Below, piece by piece: positions 1-13,507 of a DNA stretch of 13,507 nt. The position numbers and the translations under genes are program-made. Source of the DNA: a virus (lineage: Duplodnaviria > Heunggongvirae > Uroviricota > Caudoviricetes); the IMG/VR virus record IMGVR_UViG_2534681663_000023, positions 1 through 13,507 of that record, one strand, 5' to 3'. Below the pieces are notes generated by a model. It had not been told where the DNA came from. It was given only the letters and a program-made list of their open reading frames with translations, and made no database searches. The first letter of the stretch is position 1. Every line of letters begins with the position of its first letter.

Positions 1-213
1 TTAAATTGTGCGGACGGCTACTGAACCGCAGCCGGTATTGATGAGAGTGAAGCACTTGCCCTTTAGCTCAAAGATGTATGCGGTTGCGTCTTTCATGTCA
101 AGTAACAAAGACTTTGTTGGCAGTTCAGTGAGTATGGCTGCTGCCCCATCATCGTCAATTGAAATCGTATGTCCGACCTCAAGGGCGATCAAATTAGAAG
201 TTATTTTTTTCAT
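1..213 (-). CDS. Hypothetical small protein (70 aa), complete with stop at 1-3
   Basis: ORF track; ATG at 213-211 preceded on the minus strand by GGATGA about 8 nt upstream; stop TAA is the reverse complement of positions 1-3. No recognisable family. The overlapping plus-strand ORF 8-337 looks less protein-like. Confidence 0.35.
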   Translation of the reverse strand: MKKITSNLIALEVGHTISIDDDGAAAILTELPTKSLLLDMKDATAYIFELKGKCFTLINTGCGSVAVRTI

Positions 214-469
214 TTCATATCATCCAACTGAACACGTAAATACCTTGCAATACTACTACCTATTGTATCAATACGGAATACTTATGTATCAAATACAACT
301 TAGTTTTAAGTTCTTAAATGAGTTATTTTTTAGATAGTTGTCTATTAATGAAGCCTTTTGCGGTCAGTAAACCTATGTAAAAAAATAGATAAGTCTTTAC
401 AACACTAACCTTTGATGTAATATCAGTAAGCACTTACCAAATAAAATCAAAACACGCAGGTTGATAATT

Positions 470-859
470 ATGGCTACCAACGAAACAAAAGAAGCTAAAG
501 TAAGTCGCTACGCTGCTTACATTGACGCTTTAATCGCGATTTCTCCGAAAAGCCAGGCGACCATCGCGAAAGAAGCAGGCTATAAAAACCCTAACAATCT
601 TTCACTTATCAAGAGCGGCAAAATCCCGCTTCCGATCGACAAGGTCAGAGCGTTGGCTAAAGCATTGGATGCCGATTCGGTCCGATTGATGCTAATGGTG
701 CTGGAAGAGCGTCATCCAGAGCTGTTAGCGTTTTTTCGCGACGAAGGCACAGCCCCTCTGACTAAAGATGAAAAACTAGTTCTGGAAGCCTTCCGTCGAC
801 GTTTCGGTGACCAACGTGGTGCGTCGGAGCGGGTTGTTGAGGCAATCAAGTCGCTATGA
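470..859 (+). CDS. Putative HTH DNA-binding regulator (about 129 aa), convergent with the integrase
   Basis: ORF track 461-859 begins at TTG; the first ATG is at 470 with AGG about 9 nt upstream. The segment SQATIAKEAGYKNPNNLSLIKSGKIPLPIDKVRALAKAL reads like a helix-turn-helix of the XRE/phage regulator kind. Its 3' end overlaps the integrase 3' end by 6 bp. Confidence 0.5.
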   Translation: MATNETKEAKVSRYAAYIDALIAISPKSQATIAKEAGYKNPNNLSLIKSGKIPLPIDKVRALAKALDADSVRLMLMVLEERHPELLAFFRDEGTAPLTKDEKLVLEAFRRRFGDQRGASERVVEAIKSL

Positions 860-1957
860 GAAATTTACACGGATTAGCTCAGTAGCGAGTCGATCTCCCT
901 TGAACTTATGATCTATCTCCTCTAAATCCTGTTTCTCTACGATTGATGCGATGTACGCCGAAAAACTGTTTAAGGCGTCTCGCATCTCGTCTATATAATC
1001 GTGTCGATCGTATACTCGATCTATCCCCTCAAGACTGTGGTTCATAATTTTGCGGGATACCTCCTGACTTATGCCTAACGCGGGGAAGTAACTACGCGCA
1101 GTACGACGCAAATCTCGGGGAGTAAATGGCTCAAGCTCCATCAACTCTGGACGTTCTAAAATCCTTCTCAACGCCTGTGATATGGCCACCTTAGACATTG
1201 GCACATCCTCACCCTGTTTCTTGTTTGAAGGAACAAGCCACTGGCTGCCTTTTCCGTATTTGATCAGCTCCTCAACACATTTGCGCATTAGCGGGCTTAA
1301 TGGTAACGAGTGCTGGCGAGCCGATTTATTCCTCGTTCCTTGATTCCATAAATTATATTCGAGGTTGAATTCTGATCTTTTAGCTCGGAGCACTTCATCT
1401 GGTCGTCTGGCCGCTACAAGGCATAATCTGGCCGCCCACTTTGTACCCTCACATACGTTGAAGTAGTCCCATACATTCCAAAAGACCCAGACCTCTGCGT
1501 CGGTCAGTTTGCGCTCGCGCGGCGTGGGCTTCGCGCCACCGGCTACTCTGTTAAGCGACATATCGTTCAATGGGGATGTATCAATTAAGCCCTGAAATGC
1601 ACACCAACTGAGAAACTGCTTCATCAGCGAGAACACACGTCTGCCCTGGACGATCTTGCCCTCAAGTATTAATGGGTTCACCAGCTGGTTGACTAAAACC
1701 CTACTAATATCACTTACTTTTACTTCACAGATATGCGGCATTACATGTATCAAAATACAATGAACAGCTATTTCAGGTCGACGTCTCGTTATCAGCAAAG
1801 ATAAGCGAGTGAATAACATGAATGCGGAAGAAAACGACATATCACCGTCGAAATTGGTGGTCGACACTGCTGACAAACCGGAAGCGCGTTCGAGATACTC
1901 GATGGCTTCTCTAGAGGTGTTTTCTGCTGCGCGTGCTTTATCAAAAGTGTTTTTCAT
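854..1957 (-). CDS. int: Tyrosine-type site-specific integrase, P4-like family; true start uncertain
   Basis: C-terminal catalytic region matches the phage integrase pattern: ARRPDEVLRAKRSEFNL (box I Arg), KSARQHSLPLSP, RDLRRTARSY, NHSLEGIDRVYDRHDY (catalytic Tyr). The first ~75 residues of the ORF do not look like the usual P4-type arm-binding domain, so the real start may be internal (for example the Met of MPHICEVKV). Confidence 0.8.
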   Translation of the reverse strand: MKNTFDKARAAENTSREAIEYLERASGLSAVSTTNFDGDMSFSSAFMLFTRLSLLITRRRPEIAVHCILIHVMPHICEVKVSDISRVLVNQLVNPLILEGKIVQGRRVFSLMKQFLSWCAFQGLIDTSPLNDMSLNRVAGGAKPTPRERKLTDAEVWVFWNVWDYFNVCEGTKWAARLCLVAARRPDEVLRAKRSEFNLEYNLWNQGTRNKSARQHSLPLSPLMRKCVEELIKYGKGSQWLVPSNKKQGEDVPMSKVAISQALRRILERPELMELEPFTPRDLRRTARSYFPALGISQEVSRKIMNHSLEGIDRVYDRHDYIDEMRDALNSFSAYIASIVEKQDLEEIDHKFKGDRLATELIRVNFS

Positions 1958-2054
1958 AGTCCACTCACTGAGTGAAGCCTGTTTTTACTGTATTTATAAA
2001 CAGTATGTTAGGCCTAAGTTTTGTATGATCAACAGTAAAATAGACTGTTTTTGA

Positions 2055-2089
2055 AAATGATTCCATACCTTACAAGTATGGAATCATTT
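2055..2089. repeat. Perfect 14-bp inverted repeat AAATGATTCCATAC / GTATGGAATCATTT with 7-bp spacer, about 100 bp upstream of the integrase start
   Basis: Read directly from the sequence; both arms contain the recurring motif ATGATTCCATAC. Candidate operator or recombinase binding site. Confidence 0.7.
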
Positions 2090-2256
2090 ATATAGCTTAC
2101 GTAAATTCTGAATAAATTATGTAGACAAACCATCTTAAACGCTAAATAGTAAAAAGCGCCTAATAACGCCAACTTTGGAATGCCATCTGAGCCAGATTGA
2201 TGAGAATGATTTGTTAGAAGAAAAAGAATGATGAAGAAGATGACGATCGCTAAAGT

Positions 2257-2673
2257 TCAGCTAGAATGGAAACCTTCTGCGACTTCAGCGAAGTAGCTGA
2301 GCAACCTAGTATCTCTTGCTGGCATACGATCGTGAGCTGGAGTGACTAGCCCCATCAGCAAAAAACGCCCGCTATCCCACATGTGCTCGGTATAAACGAG
2401 ATAGTGGTTTGAGGTTCGGTTGTAGTTCTCTTGCCTTGCGTTCCAGGTAAGCTGGAAATGCAAATTGACGTGAATATGCTGGACATTAGCATCAACGGCG
2501 AACGGCGGGAAGTCAAATGGCGCATCTCGTCCAAGAAGATTAGATGGTGCGCCAGTTGATTTGTAAGTAATGAACTCGGATTTGAGCTGACTTTCTAGGT
2601 CAGGGTAAACGACAAAAGTGGGCTGAAAAAAATCATCCCACGTAACTTGACTGTATTCAGCCGTTAATGCCAT
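2257..2673 (-). CDS. YafO-like type II toxin (putative ribosome-dependent mRNA interferase), 138 aa
   Basis: Blocks recalled from E. coli YafO appear in the same order: ITYKSTG...LLGRDAPFDFP, HIHVNLH, HYLVY, ARD. The start ATG overlaps the stop of the upstream gene (ATGGCATTAA). Identification is from memory and needs a profile search. Confidence 0.5.
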   Translation of the reverse strand: MALTAEYSQVTWDDFFQPTFVVYPDLESQLKSEFITYKSTGAPSNLLGRDAPFDFPPFAVDANVQHIHVNLHFQLTWNARQENYNRTSNHYLVYTEHMWDSGRFLLMGLVTPAHDRMPARDTRLLSYFAEVAEGFHSS

Positions 2674-3212
2674 TTAGCCGCAGCCTTGTTGCCAGTCTCT
2701 AATAGATGGTTCATGGCTAAAAGGTTGACACCAGAGTCACGCACTACAGAAGTGCGTGTAATCTGATCAATCAGATTGAGATAGTTTTTGGTCGCAATAC
2801 TGACCATTTTAATAGCCTTAAAAAACGCAAACTCAACAGTGTTTTTTTCGTAAGACATGATGACGTCTTTTTCAGGTAACATCAAAACAAAAGATTCTGC
2901 GATACCGGCTACATGAATAGTTTGATTCTTAATTTCTTCCGCTACTTTGATAGCAGCAAAGAAGTCAGTGTCAGCATAATGAGCAAGTTCAGCGCGGCTT
3001 GAACGCAGTTCTTTAGCCAATTCATTGAGAGCAGCTGTAAGATCACTGATGTCGGTTTTGTTGACTCTAGCGCCCATCTCATAAACCCGTTCTACAATCG
3101 TAGGCTGACACGCAACCGCTTTGGGTTGCGGCTGGATACTGGCAAGAACCAGTGCCACTGCTGCCTGCAAATGCTGGATTTTAAATTTCACGATAGACTC
3201 CATAATCGTCAT
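2664..3212 (-). CDS. Hypothetical protein (182 aa), translationally coupled upstream partner of the YafO-like toxin; possible atypical antitoxin
   Basis: ORF track; 8-nt overlap with the toxin start; no recognisable domain by eye; much larger than YafN or Phd-type antitoxins. Confidence 0.45.
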   Translation of the reverse strand: MTIMESIVKFKIQHLQAAVALVLASIQPQPKAVACQPTIVERVYEMGARVNKTDISDLTAALNELAKELRSSRAELAHYADTDFFAAIKVAEEIKNQTIHVAGIAESFVLMLPEKDVIMSYEKNTVEFAFFKAIKMVSIATKNYLNLIDQITRTSVVRDSGVNLLAMNHLLETGNKAAAKWH

Positions 3213-3293
3213 TTCTCGACGAAGCGTAGCATTCTACTACTGAACTTAACTATAAGCTAAAAAAAGTTGGTTGCATATGCGACTTGATAGCAA

Positions 3294-3320
3294 AAAGGGG
3301 CCGAAGCCCCTTTGGATTTT
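3294..3320. terminator. Bidirectional rho-independent terminator hairpin (GGGGC-CGAA-GCCCC) flanked by A/T runs
   Basis: On the minus strand the stem is followed by TTTTTG, which would terminate the tRNA-Asn transcript before the toxin module; on the plus strand it is followed by TTTGGATTTTG. Confidence 0.5.
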
Positions 3321-3387
3321 GCGCTGAAAAAAGTGTTGCTACGATGCTTAGAAGCAATGGTTAAAAAACGTCTGCCGTGTCTATCAC

Positions 3388-3462
3388 AGCGCTGAACGGT
3401 CTGGCGACATTTGCGGAGTCTTTCGTTCGGACGGTGGTGGCGAATCCAAACCGTTCAGCGCT
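3388..3462. repeat. Perfect 13-bp inverted repeat AGCGCTGAACGGT / ACCGTTCAGCGCT enclosing 49 bp, immediately 3' of the tRNA
   Basis: Read directly from the sequence. Lies between the tRNA 3' end (3467) and the terminator; could be a processing or structural element, or a small repeat element. Confidence 0.6.
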
Positions 3463-3466
3463 ATGT

Positions 3467-3541
3467 TGGCGATGGTGGGTGGACTCGAACCACCGACCAG
3501 TTGATTAACAGTCAACCGCTCTACCACTGAGCTACACCATC
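3467..3541 (-). tRNA. tRNA-Asn (anticodon GTT), 75 nt with encoded CCA
   Basis: Manual fold of the minus strand: acceptor GATGGTG/CACCATC, D-arm GCTC-AGTGGTA-GAGC, anticodon stem GTTGA/TCAAC with loop CTGTTAA (U33, GTT, A37), variable TGGTC, T-arm GGTGG-TTCGAGT-CCACC, discriminator G, CCA. Confidence 0.85.
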
Positions 3542-3704
3542 ATTTTCGCGGCGGTACTAGCTTATGGACAACCAGGCAGCCAGAAACTTTCCCGTAACTT
3601 GCACTTTACGTTAGTGCCAGACGAGGTATGTGGCTCGCTCATATGAGCGAAGATCTCGAATCTTTCTCGGTGGTTGATTGCCGTTAGATTCTTCGATCTT
3701 ATTG

Positions 3705-3719
3705 GATGTATGGAATCAT
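3705..3719. repeat. 15-bp direct repeat GATGTATGGAATCAT, copy 1 of 2 (second copy at 4725-4739)
   Basis: Exact 15-bp identity read from the sequence. Its reverse complement ATGATTCCATACATC carries the recurring motif. Copy 1 sits within the local palindrome ATGTATG-GAAT-CATACAT. Confidence 0.7.
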
Positions 3720-3790
3720 ACATGTTGTGAAGCCAGGGGCAATAAAGGCAACAATGTTTTCACTAGAGGGTTAATTAATCCTGCTTTCAC

Positions 3791-3900
3791 AACGTTGAGA
3801 TCACTGAACCGATTAATGTTCAACCCAACATATTGATCAGTCGCTACAGCTATGTGGAATCGCCTGTATGATTTTAAGAAAAATCAGTGATCTCAACGTT
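3791..3900. repeat. Perfect 17-bp inverted repeat AACGTTGAGATCACTGA / TCAGTGATCTCAACGTT separated by 76 bp, in an ORF-free region
   Basis: Read directly from the sequence; arms at 3791-3807 and 3884-3900. Candidate structured RNA or miniature inverted-repeat element. Confidence 0.65.
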
Positions 3901-4266
3901 ATGTGCTGACTAACCAAGTCAGCCGGGTTACGTCGCCGCTTTTAACCCAAGTATAAACGACATAAGTAATGGAAATGACGTAACAGAATGGACGGTCAGC
4001 TGAAACCGGGATGGGGGAATGGAATGATGAAACCAACCGCCCATTCTGTTACTTCATTGAATGGGGCATGGATGGTGCAATATGCCCTATTCTGCGTTCT
4101 GCAATCACACTCGCTCAGTGTGTCCCATTTTGGTGACGAGGCTGGAAACTGACCTCGCTGGTGTTTGGCTTCTTAGGCTACTGCCAGGTATGCATCTTCG
4201 TTTGCAGTTATATTTAACGTTCAAACAGTCGCATCTCAACGAAAACAAAGTGATCTTATACATATT

Positions 4267-4290
4267 AGATAAGTAAGTAAATACTTATCT
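4267..4290. terminator. Possible weak hairpin (AGATAAGTA / TACTTATCT, 6-nt loop) at the end of the small-ORF operon
   Basis: 9-bp AT-rich stem overlapping the stop of the 101-aa ORF; no strong U-run, so terminator function is uncertain. Confidence 0.25.
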
Positions 4291-4590
4291 ATCTGTGATG
4301 CGTTTAGTTGCTATCTTTTTGATCAGGCTCCCCTTTTGTTCCGAAGTTCTCATGATGATGGCGGTAAAACGCTTCGCTTGAATAGTGATAGTTTCGTTTT
4401 CCTTGAGTTCGCCGTAATGCGTCTCTAACAGGGACCCCAGACGCCACAGACCGTCGTCTATGCGTTTATGGCTGGCGAATCTGATCAGCAGTAGCTTTAC
4501 GATTAACTGACCAATGTAAAAGGCAAATCCGAAGCCGGCCGCCACAAGGTAGGTTGCCAGCCACCAGTCGAAGGAAGTCAAATTGCTCAT
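4285..4590 (-). CDS. Hypothetical small membrane protein (101 aa), last gene of the coupled small-ORF chain
   Basis: ORF track; N-terminal hydrophobic stretch WWLATYLVAAGFGFAFYIGQLIVKLLLI; its ATG overlaps the stop of the upstream 50-aa ORF (AAATGAGC). Confidence 0.45.
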   Translation of the reverse strand: MSNLTSFDWWLATYLVAAGFGFAFYIGQLIVKLLLIRFASHKRIDDGLWRLGSLLETHYGELKENETITIQAKRFTAIIMRTSEQKGSLIKKIATKRITDR

Positions 4591-4739
4591 TTTCGCACTC
4601 CCGTCTCGTGAACAACCCGATACACACGCTTACCGACACGAAGTGTTTTGGTTTGCAGTTCCTGCTGGACCAGGGCGCGGCAGATTGCGAGGCCGAGGCC
4701 CACGCCACCAGTAAAAGATAAAATGATGTATGGAATCAT
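4587..4739 (-). CDS. Small ORF (50 aa, below track cut-off): MIPYIILSFTGGVGLGLAICRALVQQELQTKTLRVGKRVYRVVHETGVRK; small membrane protein or relic of a sensor-kinase 3' end
   Basis: Translated by hand. Start ATG overlaps the stop of the 70-aa ORF (TGATG); stop overlaps the start of the 101-aa ORF. The GC-rich segment encodes GVGLGLAICRALV, reminiscent of the histidine-kinase G2 box. The start codon lies inside repeat copy 2. Confidence 0.35.
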   Translation of the reverse strand: MIPYIILSFTGGVGLGLAICRALVQQELQTKTLRVGKRVYRVVHETGVRK

Positions 4740-4951
4740 CAGTGCGCCCCCGCCTCAGTCAATTGCTGCAACAACAAATAACCTTTTTCAGTCAGTTGAT
4801 AGTTCTCAATACATCCCTTTGGAGAAACGTTGGCGACAAGATTCATGCGCTCCAGTTTGGCTCTGGTCTTCGGCTTCCAGTTGGCGTAGAACTCCTTCCA
4901 CTTGCTGATTTCACGCAGGGTTTCCTTCTCTCGTTTACTTAACATGCTCAT
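4739..4951 (-). CDS. Hypothetical small soluble protein (70 aa), possibly winged-helix-like
   Basis: ORF track; overlaps the 3' end of the 59-aa ORF and is coupled to the 50-aa ORF. Charged, helical-looking sequence (LSKREKETLREI ... LTEKGYLLLQQL). Confidence 0.45.
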   Translation of the reverse strand: MSMLSKREKETLREISKWKEFYANWKPKTRAKLERMNLVANVSPKGCIENYQLTEKGYLLLQQLTEAGAH

Positions 4952-5114
4952 CCTTAATCTCCTTCAGTGTGTCCGTGATATCTACTATGCGATAAATACG
5001 ACCTCGCCTTTGCATGACACCGGCTTTTACGTAATCGTGGATACAGCTGGACATAACCAGACTTCCGATAACAATGCCGACGACTAAAAATACAAACATC
5101 CAGCCGAGCATCAT
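4935..5114 (-). CDS. Small ORF (59 aa, below track cut-off): MMLGWMFVFLVVGIVIGSLVMSSCIHDYVKAGVMQRRGRIYRIVDITDTLKEIKDEHVK; predicted single-pass membrane peptide
   Basis: Translated by hand. Its ATG (5114-5112) overlaps the TGA (5113-5111) that ends the reconstructed native ligase frame (ATGA overlap). Confidence 0.4.
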   Translation of the reverse strand: MMLGWMFVFLVVGIVIGSLVMSSCIHDYVKAGVMQRRGRIYRIVDITDTLKEIKDEHVK

Positions 5115-5156
5115 TCTTTATCTCCAATACGATCTTCGGTATCTCGAAGACATTTA
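5111..5156 (-). other. Displaced native 3' end of the ligase gene (encodes ...CLRDTEDRLGDKE-stop), separated from the gene body by the transposon
   Basis: Joining the sequence right of the right-hand ATTTA to the sequence left of the left-hand ATTTA keeps the ligase frame open for 13 more codons and ends at TGA 5113-5111. Confidence 0.55.
5152..5156. repeat. Target-site duplication ATTTA, left copy (right copy at 10797-10801)
   Basis: Identical 5-bp sequence immediately outside each terminal inverted repeat; 5-bp duplications are typical of Tn3-family transposition. Confidence 0.8.
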
Positions 5157-5194
5157 GGGGAGCCCGCAGAATTCGGAAAAAATCGTACGCTAAG
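5157..5194 (+). repeat. Transposon terminal inverted repeat, tnpA-proximal (38 bp); contains the tnpA stop codon
   Basis: GGGG...ACGCTAAG architecture typical of Tn3-family ends; tnpA stop at 5190-5192 lies within it. Confidence 0.85.
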
Positions 5195-8156
5195 GTTTTC
5201 CGGGCATCCGTAAGGGCCGAAACTTCCCGTCTTCCAGTCTGCGGCTCTGCCGCCAGACGTAATCGCCGGTTAGGTTGATGTGCTCCCAGCCCAGCGGCGA
5301 CAGGAATTGCAGCAGCTCGCCGTCCACCGGCTTGCCGGCCTCGACCAACCCCTGGGTGGCGCGTTCCAGGTACACCGTGTTCCACAGCACGATAGCCGCC
5401 GTCACCAGGTTGAGGCCGCTGGCCCGGTAGCGCTGCTGCTCGAAGCTCCGATCCCTGATTTCCCCAAGGCGGTTGAAGAACACCGCCCTGGCCAGCGAGT
5501 TGCGCGCCTCACCTTTGTTCAGGCCGGCATGCACGCGGCGGCGCAGTTCAACACTTTGCAGCCAGTCCAGGATGAACAGCGTGCGCTCGATCCGGCCCAG
5601 CTCGCGCAGGGCCACGGCCAGTCCGTTCTGGCGCGGGTAGCTGCCGAGCTTGCGCAGCATCAGCGAGGCGGTGACGGTGCCCTGCTTGATCGAGCTGGCC
5701 AGGCGCAGGATGTCGTCCCAGTGGGCACGCACGTGCTTGATGTTCAGGGTGCCGCCGATCAGCGGGCGCAACGTCGGGTAGGCTTGCACGCCCTGCGGCA
5801 CGTACAGCTTGGTTTCGCCGAGGTCGCGGATGCGCGGCGCGAAGCGGAAGCCTAGCAGGTGCATCAGGGCAAAGACGTGATCGGTGAAGCCGGCCGTGTC
5901 GGTGTAGTGCTCCTCGATCCGCAGGTCGGACTCGTGGTACAGCAGGCCGTCGAGCACATAGGTGGAATCGCGGACGCCGACATTCACCACGCGGGTGCTG
6001 AACGGCGCGTACTGGTCGGAGATATGGGTATAGAACAGCCGTCCCGGCTCGCTACCGTACTTCGGGTTGACGTGCCCGGTGCTCTCGCCCCGGCCACCCG
6101 CGCGGAAGCGCTGGCCATCGGAGGATGAGGTCGTGCCGTCGCCCCAGTGGGCGGCAAAGGCGTGGCGATACTGGTGGTTGACCAGCTCGGCCAAGGCCGC
6201 CGAATAGGTTTCGTCGCGGATGTGCCAGGCTTGCAGCCAGGACAGCTTGGCGTAGGTCAGGCCGGGGCTCGACTCGGCCATCTTGGTCAGCCCGAGGTTG
6301 ATCGCATCACCGAGGATTGCGGACAGCAGCAACGTCCTGTCTTTGGCCTCGGCCCCGTCCTTCAAGTGGGTGAAGTGGCGGCTGAAGCCCGTCCAGTCGT
6401 CCACGTCCATCAGCAGTTCGGTGATCTTGATGCGCGGCAGTAACTGGCTGGTTTGGTCGATCAGCGCCTGCGCCCGATCCGGCACCGCCGCATCCAGCGG
6501 GGGGATTTTCAGCCCTGACTCGGTGAGGATGGCATCGGGCAGCTCGTTGTCCTTGGCCAGGCGGGTGACGGTGGCCAACTGCTCGTCCAGCAGCTGCAAA
6601 CGCTCTTCCAGGTACTGGTCGCTGTTCGGGTTGATCGCCAGGGGCAGGGCCTGCTCGCGCTTGAGTGCGGCGAACTTCTCGGCCGGCAGCAGGTAGTCGT
6701 CGAAGTCGCGGAACTGCCGCGAGCCCTTGACCCAGATGTCGCCGGAGCGCAGGGCGTTCTTCAGCTCGGACAGGGCGCAGATTTCGTAGAATTTCCGGTC
6801 GAGGCCTTCCGGGGTGATCACCAGCGGCTTCCAGCGCGGCTTGATGAAGGCCGTGGGTGCATCGGCCGGCACCTTGCGCAGGTTGTCGGCGTTCATCTCA
6901 CGCAGGGTCTGCACGGCTGCCAGCACGCCTTGCGCGGCCGGCGCGGCGCGCAGTTCCAGCACCTCCAGCAAGGCCGGCGTGTAACGGCGCAGGGTGGCGA
7001 AGTTCTCGCCGACCAGGTGCAGGTGGTCGAAGCCTTCCGGCCGGGCCAGCAGCTCGGCCTCGCTGACGCTCTCGGTGAACTCGTCCCAGGGAATCACCGC
7101 CTCGATGGCGGCATAGGGGTCGCTGCCGCTTTCCTTCGCTTCCAGCAGCGCCTGGCCGATCCTGGAGTACAGGCGCACCTTGTCGTTGATCGCCTTGCCC
7201 TGCTTCTGGAACTGCTGCTGATGCTTGTGCTTCGCGCCGCTGAACAGCTTGACCAGGATGCGGTCATGCAGATCGACCAGCTCATCGATCACGGTCGCGG
7301 TGCTCTCCAGCACCACGGCGGCCAGGGTCGCGTAGCGGCGCTGCGGCTCGAACTTACCGAGGGCTTTGGGCGTCATCTGCCCACCCTCGCGGGCCAGCTT
7401 GAGCAGGCGGTTCTGGTGGATGTGCCGGCCCAGGCCTTCGGGCAAGTCCACCAACTGAAATGTCTTCAGCCGCTCGATGTGTTCCAGCATGTGCCGAGAG
7501 TTGGGTTTCAGCGGTGCCTGGCGCAGCCAGGTCAACCAGGTGATGCTGCTGCCGGCCTTGAGCTTCAACAGCTCGTCCAGCTTGGCCCGATGCGAGTCCG
7601 TGAGTGGTTCGACCAGGGCGCGGTAGACCCGCCGATTGGCTCGCGCAATGGCTTCCGAGCAGGCCCGGTCAATCACGCTCAGCGCCGGCAGGATGCGTCG
7701 TTTCTGCCGTAGGCTCTCCAGGGCCTGACCGGCCAGCAGCAAGCCTTTGTCGGTCTGCTGGGCCAGCTCGGTTAGCTCGCGCACCAGGGCGCGGAAGTCG
7801 GACAGGCCGAACGGGGCCAGTTGCAGGTAGGTGCGCAGTTCCTGGGCATGCTCGCGACGGGTCACGTCGCGCTCGCCGTACTTTGCCCAGCTCGCCGGCT
7901 CGGCCTGGACTTGCTTCGCCACCCACAGGATGACCGGCTCGGGCAGCTCGCTGTCGGTTCCCAGCGCGTAACCGGGGTAGCGCAGCAGGCAGAGCTGCAC
8001 GGCGAAGCCGAGGCGGTTGGCGTCGCCGCGTCGCTGGCGGATCAGCGACAGGTCGGAGTCGTTGAAGGTGTAGTAGCGGATCAGGTCATCCTGGCTTTCC
8101 GGCAGCGCAAGCAGGGTGTCCCGCTCCGTGGCCGAGAGGATCAAGCGACGCGGCAT
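5190..8156 (-). CDS. tnpA: Tn3-family transposase TnpA (988 aa)
   Basis: Length and sequence ([44 protein letters not shown]...) match Tn21/Tn501-type TnpA as recalled; very GC-rich relative to its surroundings; terminates inside the terminal repeat. Confidence 0.95.
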
Positions 8157-8159
8157 GTG

Positions 8160-8720
8160 TCAGTCGTCCGTGCGGAGGTACTGGTAGAGGGTTTCCCGGC
8201 TGATGTTGAACTCGCGGGCAAGCTGCGCCTTGGGCTCGCCGGCCGTCGCTCGCTGCCGCAGGGTAGCAGCCTGCTCATCGGACAGGGCTTTCTTGCGGCC
8301 CCGGTACGCGCCACGCTGCTTGGCCAAGGCGATGCCCTCACGCTGCCGCTCGCGGATCAGGGCGCGCTCGAACTCAGCGAAGGCCCCCATCACCGACAGC
8401 ATCAGGTTGGCCATCGGCGAGTCCTCGCCAGTGAACACCAGGCCCTCCTTCAGGAACTCGATGCGCACGCCGCGCTGAGTCAGCTTCTGTACCAAGCGAC
8501 GCAGGTCATCGAGGTTGCGGGCCAGCCGATCCATGCTGTGCACCACCACTGTATCGCCTTCGCGGACGAAGCTCAGCAGCGCTTCGAGCTGGGGGCGCTG
8601 GGTGTCCTTGCCCGATGCCTTGTCGGTGAACACCTTGCTCACCTGGGTTTGTTCCAGCTGGCGTTCCGGGTTCTGGTCAAAGCTGCTGACCCGGACGTAG
8701 CCGATGCGGTGCCCCTGCAC
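8160..8720 (-). CDS. tnpR: Serine resolvase TnpR (186 aa)
   Basis: N-terminal serine-recombinase motif (IGYVRVSSFDQNPERQ), C-terminal HTH (ISRETLYQYLR); sits directly upstream of tnpA in the same orientation, as in the Tn21 subgroup. Confidence 0.95.
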   Translation of the reverse strand: MQGHRIGYVRVSSFDQNPERQLEQTQVSKVFTDKASGKDTQRPQLEALLSFVREGDTVVVHSMDRLARNLDDLRRLVQKLTQRGVRIEFLKEGLVFTGEDSPMANLMLSVMGAFAEFERALIRERQREGIALAKQRGAYRGRKKALSDEQAATLRQRATAGEPKAQLAREFNISRETLYQYLRTDD

Positions 8721-8724
8721 GATG

Positions 8725-8900
8725 TCTCCTTGGTTGAAGGCGGCTTAAGTGCACTTTCTGTTCCGTTGTGCCTCAAAGCCCATTTCTGTCAGGCTGAAAT
8801 CTATAACCTTCGCGGGCATGTGTCAAAAAATGGGAAAGCAGACTCTATTCTGACGAAGCGGCGCGGCCCTGCCTGACATCAAGTTAGGGTATAGCCTAGA
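8725..8900. promoter_or_regulatory. Putative res (resolution) site and tnpR promoter region
   Basis: Lies immediately upstream of tnpR and contains several TGTCA/TGACA half-site-like repeats (TGTCAGGCTGAAAT..., CATGTGTCA, CTGCCTGACATC). Exact subsite boundaries not determined. Confidence 0.5.
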
Positions 8901-9029
8901 TTGACATGCGCGATGCAACCCTTAACTTGCTTGCACCTATCGTTTCCATGCTAGCTTTATCGTAACGCTCAAGAAATTGGGCTTAATGCCGAAAACAATA
9001 AAATAAAACAGCCAACCCTTGAGGTTCTT

Positions 9030-10607
9030 ATGCGCCAGAATTTACCAGTGACGGGTCGAAACTTAGAACTCCCAAAAGATGCCAATATTCTTTCGACTAC
9101 CTCCCCTCAAAGCCATATCACGTACGTTAATCCTGACTTCATTAAAATCAGTGGTTTCACTGAGGAAGAACTATTAGGCCAGCCTCACAACATCGTAAGA
9201 CACCCAGATATGCCGCCTGCTGCATTTGAGCATATGTGGAGTACATTAAAATCTGGCCGCTCATGGATGGGGCTAGTAAAAAATCGCTGTAAAAATGGCG
9301 ACCACTATTGGGTAAGTGCTTATGTAACGCCAATAGCTAAGAATGGTTCGATTGTTGAATACCAGTCTGTAAGGACCAAGCCTGAACCTGAGCAGGTTTT
9401 GGCTGCGGAAAAATTATATGCTCAATTGAGAAGCGGGAAGGCCGCGAGGCCGAAATTGGCTGCTAGCTTTTCCGTGAAAATACTCTTGCTCATATGGGGT
9501 AGTATTATATCAAGCGCAATGGCTGCCGGCATGCTTACTGATACATCAATAAGCAGCTTATTGTTAGCCACTTTAATGTCAGGAAGCTTAAGCTCTGTTA
9601 GTGTTTTGGCTATTCTCTCTCCTCTTGGAAGACTGGTTGAAAGAGCCAGGAATATTTCCAATAACCCATTAAGTCAATCCCTCTACACTGGGCGCACCGA
9701 TGAGTTTGGCCAAATAGAGTTTGCTTTACGAATGATGCAAGCTGAAACAGGCGCCATAGTAGGTCGCATAGGTGATGCATCAAATCGGCTTAGCGAACAC
9801 ACCCGAGGCCTACTAAAGGATATTGAGTCAAGCAATGTACTTACAGTTGAGCAGCAGGCAGAGACAGATCAAATAGCAACGGCAGTAAACCAAATGGTGG
9901 CAAGCATTCAAGAGGTTGCGAGCAATGCACAGCATGCTGCAGATGCGGCCGGAAGAGCAGACACTGAGACGGCATCTGGCCAGCGTCTGGTAGCCCACAC
10001 AAGCCAGTCAATCACTGCCCTTGAAGGTGAAATTAGGCAAGCCACTCAGGTTATTCATGAGCTTGAAGGTCAAAGTAACGAGATATCAAAAGTTCTTGAC
10101 GTTATACGAGGGATCGCCGAGCAAACGAATTTGTTGGCACTCAACGCAGCAATTGAGGCCGCGCGTGCTGGTGAGCAGGGGCGTGGTTTTGCTGTTGTCG
10201 CCGATGAGGTTCGCAGTCTTGCTGCTCGCACACAGCAATCGACAACGGATATTCAAAGCATGATCAGCGCTCTACAAGAGCGAGCGCAATCCGCTGTTAC
10301 AGTCATGGAGCAAAGTAGTCGGCAAGCGCACACGAGTGTAGCTCACGCAGAGGAAGCAGCTACAGCTCTTGATGGAATTGGCCAACGCGTTAACGAAATT
10401 ACCGACATGAACGCGCAAATAGCGACTGCGGTCGAGCAGCAGGGAGCAGTAAGTGAAGACATAAACCGCAGTATTATCAATATACGCGATGCTGCTGATA
10501 CCAATGTACAGACCGGGCAGAATAATTTGCAAAGTGCGAAATCTGTCGCTCAGTTAACTAGCGCTCTGAGCGAACTGGCAAAACAGTTTTGGGAAAAACG
10601 AGGATAA
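9030..10607 (+). CDS. aer: Aer-like aerotaxis receptor (N-terminal PAS, membrane hairpin, methyl-accepting chemotaxis signalling domain), 525 aa; transposon passenger
   Basis: N-terminus closely resembles E. coli Aer PAS ([68 protein letters not shown]); hydrophobic hairpin near residues 150-195; conserved signalling core ([32 protein letters not shown]). Confidence 0.85.
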
Positions 10608-10626
10608 CGCTTTTCAGTATCTCGAC

Positions 10627-10661
10627 AGGGATAACTTACTTTACCATCGGTTATCCCTTTT
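10627..10661 (+). terminator. Rho-independent terminator after the chemoreceptor gene
   Basis: Hairpin AGGGATAAC-(14 nt)-GTTATCCCT followed by TTTT, about 20 bp after the stop codon. Confidence 0.5.
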
Positions 10662-10740
10662 AGCCGCACAAATTTTAGCCATGGCTTTTCAGGAAGTCAG
10701 GGCTATCAGAATGGCCTTAGAAAGCCTAGTCAAAGAGCTG

Positions 10741-12078
10741 TCACGAGAACACCGTTAGCTTAGCGTACGATTTTTTCCGAATTCTGCGGTTCCCCCATTT
10801 AGGCCACTTCAGACGTGGATGACGCAAGCTACCATCTGGCGTTTTCTCATGGCAGTGAACCTCAACGATGCGTCCACGATACTTCTCCTGATTGTTCCAG
10901 ATTTCATCCAGGTATTTATGCTTGATACCGCTGGCACGAACGATGACGCCGTTCTCCAGACGAATCACTATCTTGCCTAGCGTATGCGCAAATCCAGAAT
11001 CCGGATCGCCAGGCTCGAAGTCGATGATTTCACCGTCTTCTGAATCCTCGTCTTTCAGCTTCCACCAGCTGCGGGTACGTTTGAACTCGTAAACTGAATC
11101 CGGATCTTTGCCCATCTCTCCCTCTTCATTCTCGTCCAGTCGCTTCATGAAACGTTCGATGAAATCTTCGTGGCTATGGATGATGTAGAACGGATGAAGG
11201 TGGATATCTTGCGCATAATCTTCCACGCAAGTGTTGCGGAACAACGCCACCAGCATAGCCAGGCGCTCTTTCAGCTTCATACCGGTCTTCAGGTACTCTT
11301 TGCTTTTTGCTTGAGCACGCCACTCCGGTAAGAAGAAATCGAAAATGTGGTAAACGGCACCAATGGCTTTCACGTTCTTCTTACGAAGCGCCGACACTGA
11401 CTGGTTGAATGTACCTGCAGTGCCCTCTCCATCGAAGAAGATGTGATTGAAGCCGGAGAGTCTGCCCCGCTCCAGCATGGCTGGTTTAAGGTGATCGAGT
11501 GACGTAATCGGATTGCCGGTGCGCGTCAGGAAATTGACCTCACCCTCGTCCACGATGACTTCGCAGATAACCCGGAGACCATCGAGTTTGAGACTGCCGA
11601 TCATTGGCCACTTGGCCTTTGGATTTGGTTTAAATGGGTATTTGTCGCCTTTCTCCTTGTACGGAGACGCCAGCTGTACCTCAAACTTCGGAATTGGGTT
11701 TTCGAACACCTTGTTGCACAGGCTGATGCCGACACCGGCTTTCGGATCTTTCAGCAGGAAGCGACGAAACACGTCCTGCCCGTCAGCGCACATCGAGGCA
11801 ACGAGTGATTCGACAGCAGCAATAGCGATGTTCCCGGTCAGTTCGCGCGCTGCCAGCTTCTCCAGCAGATCTACTACCTTCTGGTCGCTGGGTACGGAAG
11901 TATCGAGTGGCTCGGCCACTTTGTACTTCTTCACACCGAATCGAATGAATGGATTGAGCATTAGCGAGACCATGCTCTGTTCAAATTCATCCAGATTGGC
12001 CAGCGCCTCTTTCTTGGCGTTGGTTCCCATCGTTTTAATAGCATCCAGCTTGTGCTTTAGGGCGATCAGTTTTTCCAT
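10741..12078 (-). CDS. T4-type ATP-dependent DNA ligase; 3' end interrupted by the transposon (last 18 codons of this ORF are read from the ATTTA duplication and terminal repeat)
   Basis: Nucleotidyltransferase motifs in order: I KLDGLR, III FFDGEG, IIIa YHIFDF, IV EGEMGKD, V WWKLK, VI LRHPRL. N-terminal region parallels T4 ligase as recalled (LTGNIAIAAV, ISLCNKVFENPIP, LASPYKEKG). GGAGG lies about 10 nt upstream of the ATG. Confidence 0.85.
   Translation of the reverse strand: MEKLIALKHKLDAIKTMGTNAKKEALANLDEFEQSMVSLMLNPFIRFGVKKYKVAEPLDTSVPSDQKVVDLLEKLAARELTGNIAIAAVESLVASMCADGQDVFRRFLLKDPKAGVGISLCNKVFENPIPKFEVQLASPYKEKGDKYPFKPNPKAKWPMIGSLKLDGLRVICEVIVDEGEVNFLTRTGNPITSLDHLKPAMLERGRLSGFNHIFFDGEGTAGTFNQSVSALRKKNVKAIGAVYHIFDFFLPEWRAQAKSKEYLKTGMKLKERLAMLVALFRNTCVEDYAQDIHLHPFYIIHSHEDFIERFMKRLDENEEGEMGKDPDSVYEFKRTRSWWKLKDEDSEDGEIIDFEPGDPDSGFAHTLGKIVIRLENGVIVRASGIKHKYLDEIWNNQEKYRGRIVEVHCHEKTPDGSLRHPRLKWPKWGNRRIRKKSYAKLTVFS
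10759..10796 (-). repeat. Transposon terminal inverted repeat, passenger-proximal (38 bp)
   Basis: Reverse complement matches the tnpA-proximal repeat at 35 of 38 positions; followed immediately by ATTTA. Confidence 0.85.
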
Positions 12079-12112
12079 TAGTGTTTAACCTCCATCGGTC
12101 GCTCGGGAGTTT

Positions 12113-12589
12113 TCATGTGTTTTCTTTGGTTGCTTCTTCAATGAGTGCCGCGTACACGTCAGTGACCGGCGCCAGTGAATCGGTGGGCTTGGTTTCGGAT
12201 TTAGCAGGTTCTGTTTTCTTCGTGCGATGAATAAGACTGTCAATTGTCGCGGTGTTTCGCTTCCGGGGGAGCGTTCTGGCATGGTCGTTTTGCTCTTCCA
12301 CTTCTTTGATAAGTGAAGACATATCGATGAAGTAGAGCTGTTCGTCTTTGCGGATCTCTTCGACCATCATTTTCAGTGCCTGACATTTACCAGCAGCAAT
12401 AGCCGCAGCGCAGGACTGGAACGATGTAGCCGGGAGACGTTTTTCTTTATAGGCGAGGATCGTGTGTTGGCAGACTGTATAGCTGCAATGAGCCTCATGG
12501 CCGTTGAGCTTCACTTCCGGGCAGCGCAGCGAATAACCGTTGTTTCCGGAGATAGACGGGATTTTCGACAAATCTGTTCTTGTGGACAT
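12113..12589 (-). CDS. Hypothetical Cys/His-rich protein (158 aa), possible zinc-binding; directly upstream of the ligase
   Basis: ORF track; cluster RCPEVKLNGHEAHCSYTVCQH...CAAAIAAGKC; 34-bp gap to the ligase start, same strand. No family recognised. Confidence 0.45.
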   Translation of the reverse strand: MSTRTDLSKIPSISGNNGYSLRCPEVKLNGHEAHCSYTVCQHTILAYKEKRLPATSFQSCAAAIAAGKCQALKMMVEEIRKDEQLYFIDMSSLIKEVEEQNDHARTLPRKRNTATIDSLIHRTKKTEPAKSETKPTDSLAPVTDVYAALIEEATKENT

Positions 12590-12636
12590 GCTTCTAACCG
12601 TAATCTTGTACTTACTTATTAATCGCAGTTTAAAGA

Positions 12637-12653
12637 AGCCCCACGAGGGGGCT
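12637..12653. other. Short GC hairpin (AGCCCC-ACGAG-GGGGCT) between the upstream gene and the 158-aa gene
   Basis: Read from the sequence; no convincing U-run on the minus strand, so it may be an attenuator or structural element rather than a terminator. Confidence 0.25.
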
Positions 12654-12670
12654 AAATGTTTTATCGAGGC

Positions 12671-13069
12671 TTACCAGGTCGCCCAGCCAGTCATTTTGTC
12701 CTGAGCAGCTTCGAACCGGTATGGGTCCAGTAAATCGTTGGTACGATGAACGGCGTAGGATTTGGCTTCTTGTTTAATCATGGGTAATTCGTTGGCCAGA
12801 CGAGCCACTTGCCCTGCAAAACTGGCGAGTACTCCGTCACATGCCTGACCCGCGTCGACAATGATGCGCACCAGGTCTAAGTCGCTGCGGCACATATCGC
12901 AGATAATGCCGTATTCCACCTCACGAATGCGCTCAACGGCTTTTTTGATATCGCCACTGACCACCAATTCCAGCAAACCAGGTGGAGTTGTCAGATCTGT
13001 TACGCGCTCGGTAACTTCAGACTGTTCGACAATACTCAGGAACGCCGCGATGGACGGGTCATCCGCCAC
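12671..13069 (-). CDS. Hypothetical protein, probably the C-terminal part of a larger gene truncated by the IS3-family insertion
   Basis: The annotated start is GTG with no clear RBS; the frame stays open for 19 more codons upstream (ERFEDIVDATLRTLKVRAG...) right up to the IS boundary at 13127. No family recognised. Confidence 0.4.
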   Translation of the reverse strand: MADDPSIAAFLSIVEQSEVTERVTDLTTPPGLLELVVSGDIKKAVERIREVEYGIICDMCRSDLDLVRIIVDAGQACDGVLASFAGQVARLANELPMIKQEAKSYAVHRTNDLLDPYRFEAAQDKMTGWATW

Positions 13070-13126
13070 ACCAGCTCTGACTTTGAGCGTGCGAAGAGTT
13101 GCGTCGACAATATCCTCAAACCGTTC

Positions 13127-13507
13127 TGAACCGCCCCGGAAATCCTGGAGACTAAACTCCCTGAGAAAGAGGTAAACAGGATGACTAAAAATACTCGTTT
13201 TTCCCCCGAAGTCCGTCAGCGGGCGATTCGTATGGTTCTGGAAAGTCAGGATGAATATGACTCACAGTGGGCGGCAATTTGTTCCATTGCCCCAAAGATT
13301 GGCTGTACGCCGGAGACTCTGCGTGTCTGGGTTCGCCAGCATGAGCGGGATACCGGGGGCGGTGATGGTGGGCTCACCAGCGCTGAACGTCAGCGTCTGA
13401 AAGAGCTGGAACGTGAAAATCGTGAACTGCGCCGCAGTAACGATATCCTTCGCCAGGCTTCCGCTTATTTTGCGAAGGCGGAGTTCGACCGCCTCTGGAA
13501 AAAATGA
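13127..13507 (+). mobile_element. IS3-family insertion sequence (IS629/IS1203-like), left end; continues beyond the window
   Basis: Terminal sequence TGAACCGCCCCGGAAATCCTGGAG... followed about 55 bp later by an OrfA-type gene; matches the IS629-like left end as recalled. Confidence 0.8.
13181..13507 (+). CDS. IS3-family transposase OrfA (108 aa, HTH plus leucine zipper)
   Basis: [23 protein letters not shown]...[34 protein letters not shown] is the typical IS3 OrfA; ends at an A6 run before TGA, consistent with the programmed -1 frameshift site into OrfB, which lies outside the window. Confidence 0.9.

Follow-up and report, generated by a model that had tools for sequence, protein, structure and literature searches.

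An SSU5-type phage-plasmid with Tn1722 and its Aer-like chemoreceptor passenger inserted in the DNA ligase gene

Here we analyse a stretch of 13,507 nucleotides from the virus record IMGVR_UViG_2534681663_000023 (the window, in its entirety), in which positions 5157–10796 form a discrete element of 5,640 base pairs (bp). The element has three intact genes, for a transposase (tnpA), a resolvase (tnpR) and a chemoreceptor (mcp), and a res region. We regard it as almost certain that this is an intact copy of Tn1722, the 5.6-kilobase (kb) ‘minor’ or basic transposon of Tn1721, of the Tn21/Tn501 type within the Tn3 family. Tn1722/Tn1721 is a classical and very abundant transposon of Gram-negative resistance plasmids, with a chemoreceptor gene known from work published in 1992. 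The element, including its passenger, is already known; what the initial annotation of the window picked out, a Tn3-family unit with a chemoreceptor as its cargo, is correct but ordinary.

The transposon, its passenger and its empty site

The tnpA gene (5190–8156, minus strand) encodes an intact DDE transposase of 988 amino acids with DUF4158 and DDE_Tnp_Tn3 domains (E = 3e-155 for the latter), which scores 1287 bits for the NCBIfam equivalog transpos_Tn3 against a cut-off of 500. It is followed on the map by tnpR (8160–8720, minus strand), also intact, which encodes a serine resolvase of 186 amino acids (Resolvase and HTH_7 domains) and is around 83% identical in nucleotide sequence to tnpR of the Tn21 family. 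The 309-bp intergenic region between tnpR and the receptor gene contains res (8787–8906), in which three subsites are predicted from invariant TGTCA/TGACG half-site motifs in an alignment of six sequences. Named after PMC7765201 and PMC7157771, the subsites lie approximately at 8787 onwards (III), 8821–8855 (II) and 8874–8906 (I, or resI, the crossover point; PMC7157771). A sigma-70-like match at 8873–8902 overlaps resI and was discounted, as the counts in our consensus promoter and terminator scan were no higher than those in shuffled sequence.

The element ends in two 38-bp terminal inverted repeats, both of which start with GGGG and end with TAAG, as in Tn3-family ends. The repeat at the tnpA end (5157–5194, plus strand) begins GGGGAGCCCGC, ends CGCTAAG, includes the stop codon of tnpA and is identical in plasmid pCERC5 and in L014, a mosaic discussed below. 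The repeat at the receptor end (10759–10796, minus strand) matches it at 35 of 38 positions, with mismatches at positions 5–7 only, and the same variant is found 3′ of mcp in two further mosaics (L012 and L013). In published accounts of Tn1721, it is this repeat that is distinct from its other two. Directly outside the repeats lie the two copies of a target-site duplication, ATTTA (5152–5156 and 10797–10801).

We removed positions 5157–10801 (the element and one ATTTA) and compared the remainder of the window with the Escherichia coli plasmid pEC21Z137-115K (NZ_CP101235.1). The remainder is contiguous in this plasmid, at 99.88% identity and gap-free over 7,481 bp, and an exact match of 116 nucleotides spans the junction. 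The empty site has a single ATTTA and an intact DNA ligase gene of 440 amino acids, and neither the transposon nor the receptor gene. Related plasmids that lack both have this exact empty site, which shows that transposition brought in the 5,640-bp unit as a whole. The description of a complete Tn3-family unit in the initial annotation is therefore borne out for each of its parts (terminal repeats, tnpA, tnpR, res and target duplication), and related replicons without the transposon are also without the receptor at this site.

The insertion interrupts the ATP-dependent DNA ligase gene of an SSU5-type phage-plasmid (10797–12078, minus strand, by comparison with pEC21Z137-115K). In place of its final 13 codons, the ligase gene now has 18 codons that are read from the transposon end, resulting in an open reading frame (ORF) at 10741–12078. 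The displaced 3′ end of the gene, these 13 codons and the stop, lies on the other side of the element (5111–5156, minus strand; coordinates from the coding sequence at 5611–6933 of L001, by gap-free alignment). From the mechanism of the family, TnpA would act on the two 38-bp ends and copy the element into the 3′ end of the ligase gene, duplicating ATTTA, and the resulting cointegrate would be resolved by TnpR at res.

The passenger, mcp (orfI of Tn1721; 9030–10607, plus strand), encodes an Aer-type receptor of 525 amino acids with PAS_3 (residues 31–114), HAMP (residues 194–239) and MCPsignal (residues 325–486) domains. Hydrophobic 19-residue segments are confined to residues 142–197, consistent with a membrane anchor and no periplasmic domain. 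The protein matches PDB chains named ‘Aerotaxis receptor’ (E = 2.8e-65 over residues 7–476; E = 9e-41 for the PAS domain), and the motifs GQPHNxVRHPDMP and KNGDHYWV are conserved between its PAS domain and theirs. The RHPDMP part of the first motif lies at residues 57–62, in a region whose residues we take to be contacts of flavin adenine dinucleotide (FAD), as in Aer of E. coli. The order of an N-terminal PAS domain, a membrane hairpin, HAMP and the MCP signalling domain, without a periplasmic domain, is that of E. coli Aer (for example, PDB 8dik); however, alignment with Aer is poor in the central part of the protein (membrane segment, HAMP and proximal signalling region), and the signalling domain favours Pseudomonas-type receptors (CtpM, 267 bits; ‘aromatic acid chemoreceptor’ in PDB, 168 bits) over Tsr and Tar of E. 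coli (around 90–98 bits). An assignment to heptad class 36H or 40H from alignment lengths was dropped because the local alignments were mutually inconsistent. The 525-residue PAS–HAMP–MCP ORF and the matches to aerotaxis receptors uphold the view that the sole passenger is a full-length, Aer-like PAS chemoreceptor. It is predicted to be an energy or aerotaxis sensor of the Aer type with a cytoplasmic, FAD-type PAS domain, and most likely signals through the CheA/CheW arrays of its host. A literature search that linked Tn1721 with aerotaxis found no paper.

The receptor gene was also thought to have its own terminator. A terminator-like hairpin followed by UUUU is indeed present 20 nucleotides past the mcp stop codon (10627–10661, plus strand, from RNA folding), with a 10-bp stem and a 12-nucleotide loop (hairpin at 10627–10658; −15.2 kcal/mol for the 81-nucleotide fold of 10600–10680). 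Only four U residues follow it and the consensus terminator scan did not call it, so that a terminator here is plausible at most.

Identity with Tn1722 and exchange at resI

Over its 5,640 nucleotides, the element differs from the copy in pCERC5 by two mismatches, both in tnpA. They change two amino acids of TnpA (A265D and P552T) and introduce no internal stops; the TnpR proteins are identical, and the receptor is identical to WP_001323889.1 as annotated in pCERC5. In that plasmid the unit directly adjoins tetR(A)/tet(A) and a 1,044-bp fragment of tnpA, which is the classical layout of Tn1721. At least 364 of the 5,000 best-scoring plasmid records contain at least 80% of the unit, at 99.9% identity, in hosts that include Escherichia, Klebsiella, Salmonella, Pseudomonas and Aeromonas, among others. 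The recurrence of the unit with both of its repeats in many unrelated contexts also confirms that the right-hand repeat belongs to the same element as the left.

Three papers (PMC5756416, PMC5736529 and PMC7096625) describe Tn1722 with the order left inverted repeat, tnpA, tnpR, res, mcp and right inverted repeat, 5-bp direct repeats and terminal repeats of 38 bp that include one variant. The element in the window shares this order, the length of around 5.6 kb, the 38-bp repeats with one variant and the 5-bp duplication, and there is no structural difference: it is Tn1722 alone, lacking the tet extension, and it occupies a new site (the ligase gene) and has the two TnpA substitutions relative to pCERC5. 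According to papers that cite it, the chemoreceptor passenger was described, and named in the title, by Allmeier, Cresnar, Greck and Schmitt in 1992 (Gene 111:11–20; Tn1721 accession X61367, via PMC7096625). The novelty that the initial annotation implied for a chemoreceptor as cargo falls away with this, because the element is Tn1722, sequenced in 1992 with the passenger already in the title of the paper.

Two relationships place the element further. NCBI annotation labels its TnpA ‘TnAs1 family’, and TnAs1 (ISfinder; from Aeromonas salmonicida 34mel) has a near-identical tnpA/tnpR half, but its second half, with pWW0-like genes, is unrelated to the passenger half in the window (PMC5756416). 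With the Tn21/Tn501 subgroup the element shares co-directional tnpR and tnpA, a three-subsite res upstream of tnpR, 38-bp ends of the form GGGG...TAAG, 5-bp duplications and the occurrence of resI hybrids (as in L014); its cargo sets it apart, as this is a chemoreceptor and not mer genes or an integron.

The two halves of the element differ strongly in composition. The GC content of tnpA is 66.0% (88% at third codon positions, GC3) and that of tnpR 65.6% (GC3 86%), compared with 47.5% (GC3 41%) for the receptor gene and 46.6% for the res/intergenic stretch. The contrast that the initial annotation drew between a GC-rich transposition part and an AT-richer passenger with its upstream region is thus real.

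A search with a probe across the res junction (window 8300–9500), after which representatives were inspected and the res regions of six sequences aligned, yielded recurrent breakpoints near 8883–8897. In four independent mosaics (L011–L014), identity to the window switches exactly across TA/TA at 8891/8892, the centre of resI, and we infer that this is the crossover. Two of the mosaics retain the transposition half. L014, the Cronobacter sakazakii plasmid pCrono589-1, is 100% identical to the window to the left of 8891 and 37% identical to the right of 8892, where a different right half of resI and a class 1 integron follow. In L011 (91% on the left and 36% on the right) a backbone that is 93% identical to the window up to 8895 leads into different cargo, with its own related terminal repeat at the end. 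The other two retain the receptor half: in L012, a plasmid of Aeromonas caviae, the stretch from resI through mcp to the inverted repeat stands alone (54% on the left and 100% on the right), and in L013 (72% and 99%) the receptor-side repeat is identical, with proteins 73% (TnpA), 88% (TnpR) and 98% (MCP) identical to those of the window.

As identity flips at 8891/8892 in all four mosaics, each half, that with the receptor and that for transposition, is a module of its own, exchanged at resI. The comparison supports separate histories for the two halves, joined at the resI crossover by site-specific recombination, and with them the initial proposal of a separate event in which the cargo was acquired. 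A related backbone with other cargo is represented by L011, and in the published record TnAs1 combines the same backbone with other cargo. The recombination scar sought between res and the receptor gene was found in a different form: no third copy or degenerate remnant of the 38-bp repeat exists in the whole window, with up to 13 of 38 mismatches allowed, and the scar is the resI crossover itself. The passenger between resI and the far terminal repeat is then a separately evolving module of lower GC content. On this reading, a resolvase-type crossover at this point has more than once linked the half consisting of resI, mcp and the inverted repeat to different tnpA/tnpR halves, and has linked the tnpA/tnpR half of Tn1722 to other cargo.

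One neighbouring feature of L014 is recorded separately. Just outside the Tn1722-derived tnpA end of pCrono589-1 (448–2103) is an unrelated methyl-accepting chemotaxis gene, with a short match of 78% to window 10135–10215, in the conserved signalling domain.

Age, selection and carriage of the receptor

A diverged sibling of Tn1722 occurs in metagenome contigs (L003–L006) and in a metagenome-assembled genome of Pseudomonas sp. UBA2684 (L016). It is around 77% identical in nucleotide sequence to the window over the whole element, with an MCP protein that is 89% identical. Its gene order is unchanged, its 38-bp repeat is related, and the contrast in composition recurs (GC3 87% for tnpA and 41% for mcp). 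The persistence of order and contrast in a sibling with around 23% divergence indicates that the association of receptor and backbone is old. Two of the contigs, L003 and L006, have tnpA in the form of two separate ORFs.

The receptor is under purifying selection. The ratio of nonsynonymous to synonymous substitution rates (dN/dS) is 0.05 relative to the 89% relative in L003, which is also transposon-borne, and 0.04 relative to an 81% relative. This 81% relative (L007) matches known plasmids through insertion sequence elements only. For relatives with 76%, 72% and 69% identity, the surroundings are ordinary chromosomal ones that contain no Tn3 genes and have 49–56% GC. Among 185,579 species genomes, the best receptor match outside transposons is 65% identical, in a Pseudomonas, and no donor gene more than 81% identical was found in around 5.8 billion proteins or in these genomes. 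A case for conserved synteny, based on a GGDEF–EAL gene upstream of the 81% and 76% relatives, was rejected, as the two proteins are 31% identical within a single domain and the intergenic regions show no relationship. A source of lower GC content for the receptor, as first proposed, is plausible but unproven: the nearest relatives outside transposons have surroundings of 49–56% GC, but their identity is at most 81%.

A second transposon carries a related receptor. In the Pseudomonas aeruginosa assemblies GCA_017693575.1, GCA_030714835.1 and GCA_053010685.1 (L008–L010), a Tn3-family transposon (6,883 bp; L008 3037–9919) has an Aer-like receptor gene that is 77% identical to that in the window, downstream of tnpA. 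The order of its genes is tnpR (minus strand), an RHH_6 antitoxin, a PIN_3 toxin, tnpA and mcp; it has terminal repeats of 117 nucleotides that start with GGGG, a resolvase of 309 amino acids and a TnpA of 997 amino acids, and in L008 it is flanked by a 5-bp duplication, GGCTT. Three different right-hand flanks place it at three insertion sites. Its TnpA and resolvase are 31% and 39% identical to those of the window, and homology is limited to the receptor coding sequence. In the order of tnpR (minus strand), antitoxin, toxin and tnpA, with passengers downstream of tnpA as in Tn5046, it resembles the Tn5563/Tn5046 group (PMC7157771); however, its passenger is the receptor gene instead of mer genes. 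This backbone is unrelated to that of the window. The catalogue of the group in PMC7157771 does not mention chemotaxis genes, and we found no paper that describes the receptor cargo of this element.

Another methyl-accepting chemotaxis gene on transposons is mcpT, inside Tn4653/Tn6603-type, Tn501-like elements (pGRT1); as described in passages of PMC7765201, it is a distinct receptor gene, and we set it apart on that description. It is uncommon for a Tn3-family transposon to carry a chemoreceptor, but there is more than one case. The lineage described here, with receptors at 77–100% identity, dN/dS of around 0.05 and a GC content persistently below that of its carriers, occurs on at least three backbones: the Tn1722 lineage with its 23%-diverged sibling, the different, Tn21-subgroup backbone of L013, joined at resI, and the unrelated Tn5563/Tn5046-type backbone of L008–L010. 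We suggest, tentatively and with the balance still tilted against it, that Tn3-family transposons carry Aer-type energy-taxis receptors as a recurrent and selected cargo, and that Tn1721 is no isolated oddity in this respect.

Several observations weigh against reading the element as an active Tn1722 that carries a functional, selected Aer-type sensor. The identification as Tn1722 draws on the Tn1721 copy in pCERC5 and on published descriptions, not directly on the type sequence X61367. That this copy is active is presumed from its sequence, and its TnpA departs from that of pCERC5 at two residues. Similarly, FAD binding and aerotaxis are putative functions of the receptor, for which no NCBIfam equivalog reaches its cut-off (CtpM, the highest, falls well short of the 900 bits required). 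Between window 9030–10607 and L013 6244–7821, with proteins 98% identical, dN/dS is around 1 on few substitutions, which could be noise or recent relaxed selection. Finally, the receptor is often truncated in resistance plasmids, with many records beginning at window position 9090, and so is dispensable in enterobacterial hosts.

These last two observations, the truncations being caused by other insertions and the ratio being that between the two closest full-length variants, are also what speaks for the strongest of the alternatives, in which the receptor is a functionless hitch-hiker inside the repeats, unselected in any host and slowly decaying. Enterobacterial hosts, moreover, have an aer gene of their own. 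The sole phenotype reported in the literature accessed, and at second hand, is that overexpression of the receptor interferes with chemotaxis. Against this stand dN/dS values of 0.04–0.05 over deep divergence, including a comparison of two transposon-borne copies (the window and L003), an intact full-length ORF that falls in a cluster of 2,579 sequences sharing at least 90% identity, and the retention of the gene on at least three different Tn3-family backbones. We consider a hitch-hiker unlikely, if still a serious contender. The sharp step in GC content at the tnpR/res boundary and the exchangeability of the halves at resI would also suit a receptor of recent, low-GC origin that joined a ready, high-GC Tn1722 backbone shortly before the spread of the element in Enterobacteriaceae; this is improbable, because the sibling keeps both gene order and GC contrast at around 23% divergence and because the protein and genome searches returned no candidate donor above 81% identity. 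Least credible by far is that the two repeats come from different elements, with a tnpA–tnpR–res fragment beside a resident receptor gene and a stray repeat: the repeats do differ at 3 of 38 positions and the two halves are very unlike in GC content, but we count this as refuted by the exact empty site, which has neither half, and a 5-bp duplication brackets the entire unit, many unrelated contexts have the 5,640-bp unit, together with this pair of repeats, at 99.9% identity and one Tn1721 repeat is reported in the literature as a natural variant.

The host phage-plasmid and significance

The host replicon (window 1–5151 and 10802–13126) is an SSU5-family phage-plasmid of E. coli. The DNA that flanks the insertion has 90.5% identity to Salmonella phage SSU5 across tRNA-Asn and the ligase gene (3428–5151). 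The replicon encodes an integrase, a YafO toxin, the DNA ligase and tRNA-Asn (3467–3541, minus strand), and its relatives include many IncFIB plasmids of E. coli and Escherichia fergusonii of around 106–115 kb. Close plasmid relatives match the window up to 13126; the last 380 bp (13127–13507), with an ORF start at 13181, differ. Beside the tRNA-Asn gene, window 3212–4285 has few ORFs and three well-matched inverted repeats (3385–3404/3446–3465, 3788–3807/3884–3903 and 3974–3996/4036–4058), which may reflect an origin, regulatory RNAs or phage operators.

The junction between the ligase gene and Tn1722 is rare, occurring in 1 of 5,426 complete E. coli genomes, on plasmid p1 of strain cM2a (NZ_JBYTPB010000002.1; L100). 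There, at 2056–7256, the transposon is cut down to receptor fragments beside an IS26/ISEcp1-type blaCTX-M-27 region; the neighbours of these fragments are IS26, IS903B, blaCTX-M-27, dfrA17 and aadA5. The Tn1722 insertion seems to have been a landing pad for a resistance island in this phage-plasmid lineage. In a plasmid of E. coli strain I3 (NZ_CP195970.1; H100), a TnAs1-family transposase adjoins the same ligase gene, matched in two pieces; this may be an independent, nearby insertion of Tn1722 in another orientation.

The insertion is of some practical interest: set beside the pristine Tn1722 of the window, cM2a p1 illustrates how Tn1722 can seed resistance islands on phage-plasmids. If Aer-type receptors are indeed a recurrent cargo of Tn3-family transposons, taxis behaviour would be horizontally mobile and advantageous in some hosts. 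Strong purifying selection and carriage by several unrelated Tn3-family backbones make the benefit of the receptor to its hosts a question worth asking after 30 years.

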